DNA from: an uncultured Nitrososphaeraceae archaeon
GTDB taxonomy: Archaea > Thermoproteota > Nitrososphaeria > Nitrososphaerales > Nitrososphaeraceae
Length of the DNA stretch: 64,000 nt
Direction of reading: 5' to 3'
Assembly: GCA_963837175.1 (NCBI GenBank)
Contig: CAWIMJ010000010.1
Location: forward strand, 1 to 64,000
How positions within the stretch are numbered: position 1 is the first letter of the stretch; each line of letters begins with the position of its first letter. This document shows positions 19,507-25,272 of the stretch, one piece after another. The translations under genes and the position numbers were made by a program. The notes under the pieces are model-generated. The model was not told the origin of the DNA, made no database searches, and saw only the letters and a list, made by a program, of their open reading frames with translations.

Positions 19507-19869
19507 ATGACAACAGCAGTAATAGAAGATGCGAAGAAAGAGAAGACAGCCAGAAGAAAAGGAAAGCACGCATATTCAACTGAAAATCGTAGAATGGTGT
19601 GGGAAAATGTTGTTTGGCCTTTAATAGTGAAAGTTAACAGATCATATTTTACGTTGAAAGAATACCACACTAAAAGAGATGAATTTTGTAGACTTAACAA
19701 TATGAGACCTTCAAAGGTTGCAGGTGGTTTTGTATCTTTATTGGTTAAAGGGATCCTTACTAAAGAAAAGAACATCTATTCAATTAATTATAGGCTTATT
19801 CCATATATGAGAAAGAAAGCAAATTTGGAATATGGTCTTGTAATTAGAGAAATTAATACAAAACGATAA
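19507..19869 (+). CDS. Basic hypothetical protein, winged-helix-like
   Basis: 120-aa Lys/Arg-rich ORF; GFVSLLVKGILTKEKNIYSI. Confidence 0.8.
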   Translation: MTTAVIEDAKKEKTARRKGKHAYSTENRRMVWENVVWPLIVKVNRSYFTLKEYHTKRDEFCRLNNMRPSKVAGGFVSLLVKGILTKEKNIYSINYRLIPYMRKKANLEYGLVIREINTKR

Positions 19870-20208
19870 AGCTAAATAATATAATAATTATAAGACTATT
19901 ATTAATAATATTATATTAAATATTAAATATATTAGTCGTTATAGAGACTGCTGATAAGTAAGTATGCCTATGTAGTCATATTATGATATCATATACATAT
20001 GCTTATAATTATTTTAAGGCGATGACTTTTTTTGTGGGAATTAGTATTTTATCTTTGATGTGTTATGTTAATATGCAATTTCATAATATTTAAATTAATT
20101 TTTTGGAGAATGTGACAAGAATATAGTGATATTAATGCTATTTAGCTAACGATAAAATAAAATATCGGTCTAGCAATGGATGATTTTGTAGCCCGTGTAT
20201 ATGAATGA

Positions 20209-20360
20209 AGCCCGGTCGAACCTGGATTATTTAATTTAAGCAGGTGCCGAATCTAGTGGCCAATCTATCTCTCCAAGGTAGGGCTATGGATTTCAGGCTC
20301 TGGATCTGTCATGAGAAAAGAAACCTGGAGACAGCAGTTCGAATCTGCTCCGGGCTACCA
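20209..20360 (+). tRNA. tRNA-Gln(CTG) with three introns (20219-20251, 20264-20287, 20304-20322) and encoded CCA
   Basis: Joined exons give a 76-nt cloverleaf: AGCCCGG TC GTCT AGTGGCCAA GGAT T TCAGG CT CTG GA CCTGG AGAC AGCAG TTCGAAT CTGCT CCGGGCT A CCA; each junction has a BHB-type motif. Confidence 0.93.
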
Positions 20361-20395
20361 TTTTTATTGTAATATTTAACTGCTCTCTAATATCA

Positions 20396-21991
20396 TTATT
20401 TTGGACCTGCGTTTCGTATTTCCTCAGATACTTCTCCAAACTTTTGAAAGTTCTTGACAAATAATGCTGCAAGTCTATTGGCAGATAAATCATATTTGTT
20501 CTTATCAGACCACGTATTGCGTGGGTCTAGAATTTCAGACGGAACTCCGGGGCATGAAGTAGGAATATCGAGGTTAAAAATATCATTGTGTATAAAGAGT
20601 GCTTTCTCCAATTCTCCATTCAACGCGGCTGTTACCATTGATCTGGTATATCCGAGATCCATTCTCTTTCCCACTCCATAAGGTCCTCCAGACCAGCCTG
20701 TATTGATCAAATATACTTTAGTATTATGTTTGGAGATCTTTTGTCCAAGCATAACTGCATATTCTCTAGCATGCAATGGCATAAATGGAGCACCGAAACA
20801 TTGCGAGAATGTTTCTTTTGGTTCCGTGATCCCTCTTTCTGTTCCTGCCAATTTGCTAGTATATCCTGACATAAAATGATACATAGCACCTTCTTTTGTC
20901 AATTTGGCAATTGGTGGCATTACCCCAAAGGCATCTGCAGTTAGAAAAATGATAACATTTGGGTGCCCAGCTATGCTTGGAATTATTGCACCAGGTATAA
21001 AGTTGAGAGGATAGACTACTCGAGTATTTTCTGTAAGGCTGCCATCAGTAAAATCCGGCTCTCTTGTATCGCTCTTAAGAACAACATTTTCCATTACTGA
21101 ACCAAACCTTATGGCATCCCAAATTTGTTGTTCATTTTCCTTTTTCAGATTTATGCATTTTGCATAACAACCACCTTCAAAATTGAAGATTCCCTTATCA
21201 GACCAGCCGTGTTCATCATCACCAACAAGATGCCTATAACGATCAGCGGAGAGTGTTGTCTTTCCTGTACCAGATAATCCAAAGAACAACGCAGTATCGC
21301 CGCTGTTGCCTACATTAGCTGAGCAGTGCATAGGAAAAATGCCCTTACTAGGTAAAATGTAGTTCATTACAGAAAACATAGCTTTCTTGATTTCACCAGC
21401 ATAAGAGGTTGACCCTATTAGAACAATCCTTTTCTTAAAGTTTATAATAATGAATGTCTCAGTTCTTGTTCCTTCTAGTTTAGGTATTGCTCTAAAGTCG
21501 TTCACCGATAATAAAGTAAATTCGGGCTCATGACTTTCGAGTTCTTTTAATGTAGGACGAATAAAGATTTGAGTTGCAAAAAGGGTATGCCATGCTTTAT
21601 CTGTAATTACTCTTATTGGTAGGCGTATATTATTATCTGCTCCAACAAAACCATCAAAAACAAAGAACTCTTTTCCTTCTATAATTTTTTTCATTCTGAG
21701 AAAAATCTTTTCAAAATTTTCTTCCGAGATTGAATGGTTTATCTTCCCCCAGTCTACAGAATTATGGGAATATTCATCATCAACAATATATTTATCATCT
21801 GGGGATCTGCCTGTAAATTTGCCGGTTTTTACAGAAAAAGCTCCAGTAGAAGAAAGATTTCCCTCTTTTCTACAAATAGCGATCTCTATTAATGAAGGAA
21901 CTGAGAGATTTCGATGTAGTTTACCGAGTCTAATATCCATTTTTTCAAGTTGCATAAGACATCTTGCGCGTGGATTGTAGCTCATTAGCAT
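20396..21991 (-). CDS. pckA: Phosphoenolpyruvate carboxykinase (ATP)
   Basis: [47 protein letters not shown]; exact start uncertain. Confidence 0.97.
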
Positions 21992-24217: not shown

Positions 24218-24540
24218 GATTGAGGAAAAGACCTGAATGATAATGAAATTTTTTAGATTTAGTTATTAATATCCATTTTACAACTAACTTATTTTATAAA
24301 ATGTAGAAAATATAGAATAATATATACTGTAGAGCTTCAATCCATATGAGACAAGTAAACTTTCCAATCTGAGGAAGCCAAAAACTCAATTGTTTTCTAA
24401 TATTGATATTATGTAGCTGGAGATTTGGCTGTACATAGATATGTGTTGTCGAGTCTGATTCTAATTCTGATGATTGTTTTCGCACATTAATTTTCTTCTT
24501 TGTTCTCATTGAACTTACAAAAAAGCAGTAACATCAGAAA

Positions 24541-24615
24541 CGAGCCCGAAGGGCTTCGATCCCTTGATCTGCGGTTCCGAAGACCGCTGCGATGTCCTAA
24601 CTACGCTACGGGCCC
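24541..24615 (-). tRNA. tRNA-Arg(TCG), intronless, CCA not encoded
   Basis: GGGCCCG...GCGGT CT TCG GA ACCGC...AAGGG ATCGAAG CCCTT CGGGCTC G cloverleaf. Confidence 0.95.
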
Positions 24616-25272
24616 ATCTAATGTTTATTCTTCAAGGGCTCGTCCTATATCAACGGAACTAATATGTACATTTCGGTCAACTGATCTCTATGGTTGTTGA
24701 GAACTTGAGATAACATACTATGTTTATTTTGTTCTATTGGAAAACCTTATTTTTTATTCATTATAATTTTTGACTAGGTTGATAGCAATAATAAATATGA
24801 TATTTTGTATTATCTGTTTTTATCTATAACAATACCTCCATTATGATATTGGAATAATACTAACTAGTAACCTTTTCTCCAATTTTTATTCTAATTCCAC
24901 ACTTTCATAAACAATAAATATGGTTGATAAAGCATAAATGGGTCGAGAAGATTTATAATTACCGTTATTCAATATACATAATTTGACATTGAAAAACTAA
25001 TAATAATTCAACCACTGGCTAATACATATATCCAAATTTTTATTAACTATCCATTCTTTGAACATTCAACAATATTTAGACTCAACTTAACATCACAATC
25101 AATTTAACTAGCCAGTTTTCATTATTCAAATTATATTCTTATTAGAAAAGTTGAAAGAACATTGAATGATTGGAGTCTCATTCCGATCGAACTGTATCAT
25201 CAAAGCAAAATCAAAAGCCATTTCAGATAAGTAAATTTCTTAAAGGATATAAGAAGTGTAGATAGTATTTCT

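Follow-up and report, generated by a model that had tools for sequence, protein, structure and literature searches.

The window, the whole 64,000-nucleotide stretch of DNA that was analysed, carries on its forward strand a tRNA-Gln(CTG) gene that is divided into four exons by three introns. The parts of the gene and the elements that flank it are as follows.

20152..20165, + strand: A/T-rich box ATAAAATAAAATAT, likely the TATA element of the tRNA promoter, judged from its position
20188..20195, + strand: leader motif GTAGCCCG, an acceptor mimic complementary to bases 67-73 and the first trailer base
20209..20218, + strand: exon 1, 10 nt, tRNA positions 1-10 (acceptor 5' strand, U8, C9 and G10)
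20219..20251, + strand: intron 1, 33 nt, site 10/11
20252..20263, + strand: exon 2, 12 nt, positions 11-21 (D-stem 5' strand and D-loop)
20264..20287, + strand: intron 2, 24 nt, site 21/22
20288..20303, + strand: exon 3, 16 nt, positions 22-37 (D-stem 3' strand and anticodon stem 5' strand)
20300-20302, + strand: anticodon CTG, within exon 3
20304..20322, + strand: intron 3, 19 nt, canonical site 37/38
20323..20360, + strand: exon 4, 38 nt, positions 38-76
20361..20365, + strand: T5 run immediately 3' of the CCA, likely the transcription stop

The A/T-rich box lies about 26 nt 5' of the leader motif, and an AAATAT core at a comparable distance is present in most orthologues of the family. Exon 4 holds the anticodon stem 3' strand, a 4-nt variable loop, the T-arm, the acceptor 3' strand, A73 and an encoded CCA, which is absent from the genes of some relatives. 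When the introns were removed, ARAGORN recognized the 76-nt joined product as a full tRNA-Gln(ctg) with encoded CCA, having a 7-bp acceptor stem, a 4-bp D stem, a 5-bp anticodon stem and a 5-bp T stem. The anticodon CUG is found in a 7-nt loop with U33, and the variable loop is of class I. The restored cloverleaf, with the right lengths, was also obtained with a solver that applies only the splicing motif and cloverleaf rules and uses no reference tRNA; from 132 candidate introns, this solver ranked the three-intron solution first of 4. The initial annotation, made from the sequence alone, had read the locus as exons of 10, 12, 16 and 38 nt that assemble into a 76-nt Gln cloverleaf, and the coordinates, ARAGORN and the motif-only solver all confirmed this reading. 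The top rank in the motif-only search, together with the constant exons and varying introns of the relatives described below, indicates that the gene structure is beyond chance.

A gene for ATP-dependent phosphoenolpyruvate carboxykinase (PEPCK; 20396-21991, - strand; PF01293, E 7.5e-221) faces the tRNA gene in convergent orientation, and its stop codon is located 36 nt beyond the tRNA CCA. A 66-aa ORF that overlaps the tRNA had no family match and is probably spurious.

Splicing motifs of the three introns

In archaea, the splicing motif consists of a 4-bp central helix (H) between two 3-nt bulges, with a cut made after the second base of each. In intron 1, helix H is CGGT/GCCG with 4/4 pairs (20213-20216 with 20246-20249), the bulges are CG^A (20217-20219) and AA^T (20250-20252), and the inner helix ACCTG/CAGGT comprises 5 bp (20220-20224 with 20241-20245). 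This helix H is formed by tRNA bases 5-8 and the GCCG of the intron, and bases 5-7 also belong to the acceptor stem. The outer helix of intron 1 has 0 bp, and none of the 23 genes of the first set that contain this intron forms one. Intron 2 has a helix H of GGCC/GGCT with 4/4 pairs (20258-20261 with 20282-20285), bulges AA^T and AT^G, an inner helix CTATCT/AGGTAG of 6 bp (20265-20270 with 20276-20281) and an outer helix of 1 bp. These helices and bulges of introns 1 and 2 had been named in the initial annotation, and all of them are present as it described them. In intron 3, helix H is CTCT/AAAG with 3/4 pairs (20298-20301 with 20317-20320), and its single C-A mismatch is conserved; the inner helix joins 20305-20307 with 20314-20316, and the anticodon stem provides an outer helix of 7 bp. 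The assignment of this 19-nt intron to 37/38 also held, and placing it at 38/39 yields an identical product. An outer helix that closes the 3' bulge, which defines the strict form, was found in intron 3 only. Given outer helices of 0 and 1 bp versus 7 bp, introns 1 and 2 are of the relaxed HBh' form and intron 3 is of the strict form. HBh' is a known variant of the archaeal splicing motif.

The loop of intron 2 (20271-20278) reads CTCCAAGG, lies outside the splicing helices and is found in most orthologues of the family. It is near-complementary to CCTGGAG in exon 4 (20324-20330; the anticodon-stem 3' strand plus two bases), and orthologues whose exon 4 is altered at CCTGGAG are without the CTCCAAGG motif. 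The two segments may form an alternative pairing in the precursor.

Detection by tRNA finders

ARAGORN with intron search gave no match at the locus on unspliced DNA, and the Rfam tRNA model RF00005 at its gathering threshold left the locus unmatched, whether the window or the entire genome was searched, as expected from the prediction in the initial annotation that standard annotation would probably miss or truncate the gene. The only tRNA called by ARAGORN in the window was an intron-less tRNA-Arg(TCG) at 24540-24616 (- strand). The initial annotation had also raised the question of another Gln(CTG) gene in the genome; no second one was found in the 91%-complete assembly. A tRNA-Gln(TTG) gene was located outside the window, at contig C16:125262-125352, and its 10/11 site is interrupted by an intron of 18 nt that has the same helix H. 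ARAGORN reported this gene as intron-less with a 5' end at 125279, which lies within the intron, the true 5' end being 17 nt upstream, and Rfam matched it at model positions 9-63 only. Thus, ARAGORN and Rfam leave glutamine decoding seemingly incomplete in such genomes and ARAGORN also misplaces the 5' end of the other Gln gene. Since one Gln gene was missed and the other mis-set, annotation of this lineage needs intron-aware tools.

Several other ARAGORN calls in this genome were resolved differently by motif-based solutions. A Tyr(ata) with a 72-nt intron resolves as Leu(TAG) with two introns, an 'Arg(ccg)' as Glu(TTC) with a D-loop intron, and an 'Ala(agc)' as Asn(GTT), whose intron follows linear position 28. 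For a 'Lys(ctt) i(37,47)', a two-intron Leu(CAG) and a CTG-anticodon solution scored equally. An Arg(CCT) gene that received no ARAGORN call was found at C17:49826 (- strand). Judged from these motif-based solutions, the genome is rich in non-canonical tRNA introns that ARAGORN mislabels.

Conservation of the introns among relatives

A DNA search of 41 genomes, comprising the own genome and others of the genus, family and order, yielded 30 loci. L022, which is truncated at the end of its contig, was left out of all counts, giving a first set of 29 full-length orthologues, in which introns were identified by spliced alignment and motif checks; intron 2 of L016, L017 and L030 was placed by motif. 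The 10/11 intron was present in 23 of the 29 orthologues, an intron at 21/22 with a 4/4 helix H in 28, and the 37/38 intron in 28, with L027 having an anticodon-loop intron without a settled placement. Of the 23 orthologues that contain intron 1, 16 give a spliced product identical to that of this gene. Intron 1 itself ranged from 17 to 37 nt in the first set, with loops unrelated in sequence and different inner helices, and in introns 2 and 3 the H helices were kept and the inner helices varied among relatives. The exons are therefore strongly constrained and the introns free to vary, which argues for a working gene, not a relic. As far as its sequence tells, the locus is a functional, conserved tRNA-Gln(CTG) gene and an ordinary member of a kind known for the lineage.

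In an order-level sample, 151 genomes were searched and 60 further loci were fetched; the introns of L082, L104, L105 and L107 were read by eye and not by the solver. The three introns occurred together in 32 of the 42 Gln(CTG) genes of the family, single-contig genomes included, and so the caveat on novelty in the initial annotation applies. All 10 family CTG genes without intron 1 belong to one genus, in which 2 other genomes keep intron 1. A single 10/11 intron of 17-32 nt was present in 20/20 Gln(TTG) orthologues fetched from the family, and a 10/11 intron was also found in eight TTG genes from five other families, bringing the site to 71 of the 110 Gln genes examined across the order. Together with the TTG genes, this count indicates that the 10/11 site is a standing feature of the Gln tRNA genes of the order. 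The initial annotation had not counted 10/11 among the common sites; in the Gln genes of this order, the site is routine. The text of the review PMC4090602, in excerpts, lists many non-canonical sites and 3/4, and not 10/11.

Six Gln(CTG) genes from two other families (L026 and L073-L077) have a D-arm intron three bases further 3' than 21/22, after linear position 25. The splicing motif of this intron is strict, its outer helix having 4 bp, and the leader motif in these genes stands directly before base 1.

Covariation within intron 1 was analysed in the 71 genes with a 10/11 intron, which represent 67 distinct sequences. The four H pairs were formed in 65, 67, 67 and 67 of the 67 sequences. 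In L025, L082 and L087, the second H pair is changed from G-C to C-G, with a matching change in the exon and in its acceptor partner. Inner-helix pairs 1-3 were formed in 66, 66 and 61 of the 67 sequences with four to six pair types, as compared with 52, 27 and 30 when partners were shuffled, and the observed counts were reached in 0 of 1000 shuffles, a test that is inflated by sequence kinship and in which the variety of pair types is still plain.

A leader copy of the acceptor strand

In every TTG gene of the family, NGCCCGGA stands directly before base 1, and in the family CTG genes GTAGCYCG is located 5-12 nt before base 1 (here 20188-20195). Both leader motifs are copies of the acceptor 5' strand. 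The leader was scored by the longest run within 25 nt that is complementary to bases 66-73; in this gene, 7 consecutive nt at -20 are complementary to the 3' acceptor strand. A run of at least 6 nt was detected in 69/71 Gln genes with the 10/11 intron, 8/39 Gln genes without it and 4/31 other tRNA genes of the genome, and a run of at least 7 nt in 53/71, 4/39 and 0/31, respectively, counts that overstate independence because the genomes are related.

The leader motif follows both the acceptor stem and the intron. Its variants are C-to-T changes only, by which pairing with the G-rich 3' strand is retained, and in the genes whose acceptor reads AGCCCCG (L025, L082 and L087) the leader motif is AGCCCCG too. 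Intron 1 was lost within one genus; there, the 10 genomes that lack it have a degraded motif, and the 2 that retain it have an intact one. Moreover, comparison of L034 with L019 showed a TTG gene that keeps intron and motif in a genome whose CTG gene lost both. Exceptions were found in both directions. L014 has a 10/11 intron, but its 25-nt leader contains no motif and brings no gain in energy, and L040 has a 10/11 intron and a leader run of only 5. The intron-less genes with a run of at least 6 are L028, L030, L079, L080, L084, L085, L092 and one more.

Among the CTG genes without a 10/11 intron, L079, L080, L085 and L092 have a AGCCCGGA-like copy of the acceptor strand 22-25 nt upstream, and in L084, also without the intron, the longest run is at -9 and a further copy lies about 25 nt upstream. 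L079, L080, L084 and L085 come from one other family of the order. The upstream copies in these five genes could be left over from an earlier state with both intron and leader, since lost, or could serve a different function. An origin of the leader copy together with the intron by tandem duplication was considered and rejected: the two copies are adjacent or nearly so, with the intron downstream of both.

Folding of the precursor

For this gene, forcing the intron-1 motif in RNAfold cost 8.6 kcal/mol relative to the lowest-energy fold without the leader and 2.9 kcal/mol with it, and in the fold with the leader, the leader pairs with the 3' acceptor strand. The calculation was then extended to all 71 genes, each with 25 nt of leader and 6 nt of trailer. 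The mean cost of the intron-1 motif was 3.2 kcal/mol with the native leader, 7.1 without a leader and 5.5 with shuffled leaders, and the cost with the native leader was below the shuffled mean in 64/71 genes. The leader paired with the 3' acceptor strand in 64/71 forced folds and in 45/71 free folds. The advantage of the native leader depended on the trailer: with a 3-nt trailer the native leader was better in 39/44 genes, and with no trailer it beat shuffled leaders in 54/71 genes, including 26/42 CTG genes. The pair probability of helix H was 0.10 in this gene with its native leader, a value matched by 14/50 shuffled leaders, and 0.75 in the TTG gene, a value reached by 0/50 shuffles. Because the folding support depends on the set-up, we regard a role of the leader as a decoy as a well-motivated hypothesis, not as a finding.

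Splicing enzymes and RNA data

The genome encodes RtcB and two EndA paralogues of 183 aa and 207 aa, each with PF01974 plus PF02778. In the 207-aa protein, Pro147 stands opposite a histidine of the M. jannaschii enzyme, which we take to be the catalytic one, and on this basis the protein fits a structural subunit. The 183-aa protein has its best matches among crenarchaeal catalytic subunits (E 3e-40 to 3p1z_B), also aligns to the catalytic subunit 2cv8_A, and can be aligned to A. pernix residues 10-111 with no gap, specific loop included, and with K38 opposite K44. The specific loop and the K44 lysine reportedly confer broad specificity and are conserved in a superphylum that includes Thaumarchaeota (PMC5829648, in excerpts). 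The genome is thus predicted to encode a two-subunit EndA, composed of a catalytic alpha subunit with the broad-specificity loop lysine and a structural beta subunit. The initial annotation had argued that relaxed motifs need an EndA of broad specificity, and these predicted subunits, together with RtcB, are in line with that expectation.

Parts of 19600-21200 are represented in 24 public RNA runs, four of which (X1-X4) were examined as contigs. In X1, a single unspliced contig of 364 nt covers 20206-20550 without joints; its first base lies 3 nt upstream of the mature 5' end, it continues into PEPCK in antisense, and a C-to-T change at 20387 is its sole difference from the window. This contig may represent the precursor, antisense read-through of the neighbour or DNA carry-over. 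X2 gave no contig at the locus, and X3 and X4 gave 50-nt contig ends that continue into unlike sequence, which indicates that they come from relatives. With no spliced junction among the contigs of X1-X4 and one unspliced contig over the gene, these data are neutral on splicing.

Discussion

A motif that is half-built from acceptor-stem bases should form poorly, yet two Gln genes have retained this one over many genera. The explanation we consider best, with a probability of about 0.9, is that the locus is a functional tRNA-Gln(CUG) gene whose three introns would be spliced by EndA and RtcB, with a leader decoy as a proposed component. The host is an AT-rich archaeon with features in keeping with the ammonia-oxidiser order. 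We infer the following order of events. Transcription would start near the leader motif, about 20 nt upstream, and stop at the T-run, producing a precursor of about 175 nt. Since bases 5-8 supply one strand of the central helix of intron 1, the acceptor stem would have to be partly open when this intron is cut. In the precursor, the leader copy of the acceptor 5' strand could engage the 3' acceptor strand and leave bases 5-8 free. The host two-subunit endonuclease, with its catalytic alpha and structural beta subunits, would cut out the three introns, RtcB would join the exons, and the ends would then be trimmed. In this scheme, the leader copy acts in cis as a decoy: by pairing with the 3' acceptor strand, it would free bases 5-8 for the 10/11 splicing helix, and it would be displaced after splicing. 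We hold this decoy role tentatively, at slightly under even odds.

A gene that is spliced as proposed might carry the leader motif for another reason, such as marking the start region, leader processing, blocking of premature end-processing or charging, or simple descent with the intron, and we see this as a substantial possibility, if one that falls short of an even chance. The motif is located where the transcript is expected to start, the folding advantage of the native leader is modest and set-up dependent, L014 has the intron without the motif, several intron-less genes have a similar motif about 25 nt upstream, and the intron-bearing genes come mostly from few clades. Against these other roles, the motif copies the acceptor strand and follows it where the acceptor itself differs, as in the AGCCCCG genes, it varies only by pair-keeping C-to-T changes, and it occurs in two layouts, adjoining base 1 in TTG genes and lying 5-12 nt upstream of it in the CTG genes of the family. 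Within one genus it decays exactly where intron 1 is lost, with the TTG gene keeping both (L019 versus L034), and it pairs with the 3' acceptor strand in 64/71 motif-forced folds. A different objection concerns the splicing helix itself. Another fold or nuclease, and not the helix with bases 5-8, might set the cuts of intron 1; the lowest-energy fold without the leader does keep the acceptor stem and pair bases 8-10 with the intron, and the 23 first-set genes have no outer helix. Against this, the 4-bp helix with 3-nt bulges is found in 65-67 of 67 sequences, including those in which exon G6 to C is accompanied by intron C to G, and the cut sites predicted from H are the only ones that restore the D-stem. 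We consider removal of intron 1 by such a route very unlikely.

Least probable of all, and hardly credible to us, is that the locus is a decaying tRNA relic with junk insertions and that CAG is read by the Gln(UUG) tRNA alone. Such a relic would be consistent with the lack of spliced reads among the RNA contigs examined, with the failure of standard finders to call the gene, and with the presence of a second Gln gene on another contig. It is contradicted by exons that are identical in 16/23 orthologues next to diverged introns, by compensatory changes that have kept every splicing helix, and by insertions that always fall at motif-defined sites; moreover, the TTG gene, which would have to take over, is itself interrupted at 10/11. 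A functional gene with three introns therefore remains our preferred reading.

Multi-intron tRNA genes are known from several archaea. Genes of Thermoproteales contain up to three introns each (PMC8450103 and PMC4033280, in excerpts), and they resemble the present gene in having no more than three introns, canonical as well as non-canonical sites, relaxed motifs and a two-subunit endonuclease with the specific loop (PMC8450103, PMC4090602 and PMC4033280, in excerpts). Unlike them, our gene belongs to another lineage and has the same introns at fixed sites of one tRNA family across the order. In Thermoproteales, intron families are shared between unrelated tRNAs. Closer to the present lineage, some Thaumarchaeota tRNA genes have multiple non-canonical introns, of which 107 were counted in the Thaumarchaeota genomes of PMC8450103 and on which the intron model of tRNAscan-SE 2.0 was trained, according to excerpts of that paper; its supplement, which lists version differences only, has no row for a Nitrososphaera Gln(CTG) gene in the part available. 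In Caldiarchaeum subterraneum, which has a heterotetrameric endonuclease, tRNA-Gln(CUG) is one of three multi-intron tRNAs and in this respect is like our gene, and the excerpts of PMC3082918 mention neither the intron positions nor a leader element. The three introns of this gene were not found described for Nitrososphaera-type genomes in the literature searched. Nevertheless, the novelty of the gene in itself is low, as it is lineage-wide and of a known kind, and it is probably in tRNA databases already.

What appears to be new is a D-stem intron that borrows acceptor-stem bases and is coupled to a co-varying leader copy of the acceptor strand. In the 3/4 introns of Thermoproteales and in split or permuted tRNAs, the motif likewise involves acceptor-stem bases or the flanking leader and trailer (PMC4090602, in excerpts). 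There the flanks form part of the motif itself, whereas the pairing proposed for our leader involves the 3' acceptor strand, away from the motif and in competition with the true 5' strand. In the literature searched, neither a leader copy of the acceptor strand nor a leader competitor of this kind was found described. If the decoy role is true, it would be the first leader decoy known to co-evolve with a tRNA intron and would account for the persistence of an intron at a site in conflict with the acceptor stem. If the decoy is displaced only after splicing, the order 'splice first, trim ends later' would be enforced. The link between leader and intron offers a testable idea of how precursor folding may be steered in the Gln tRNA genes of this order, and of why leader motif and intron are lost together.
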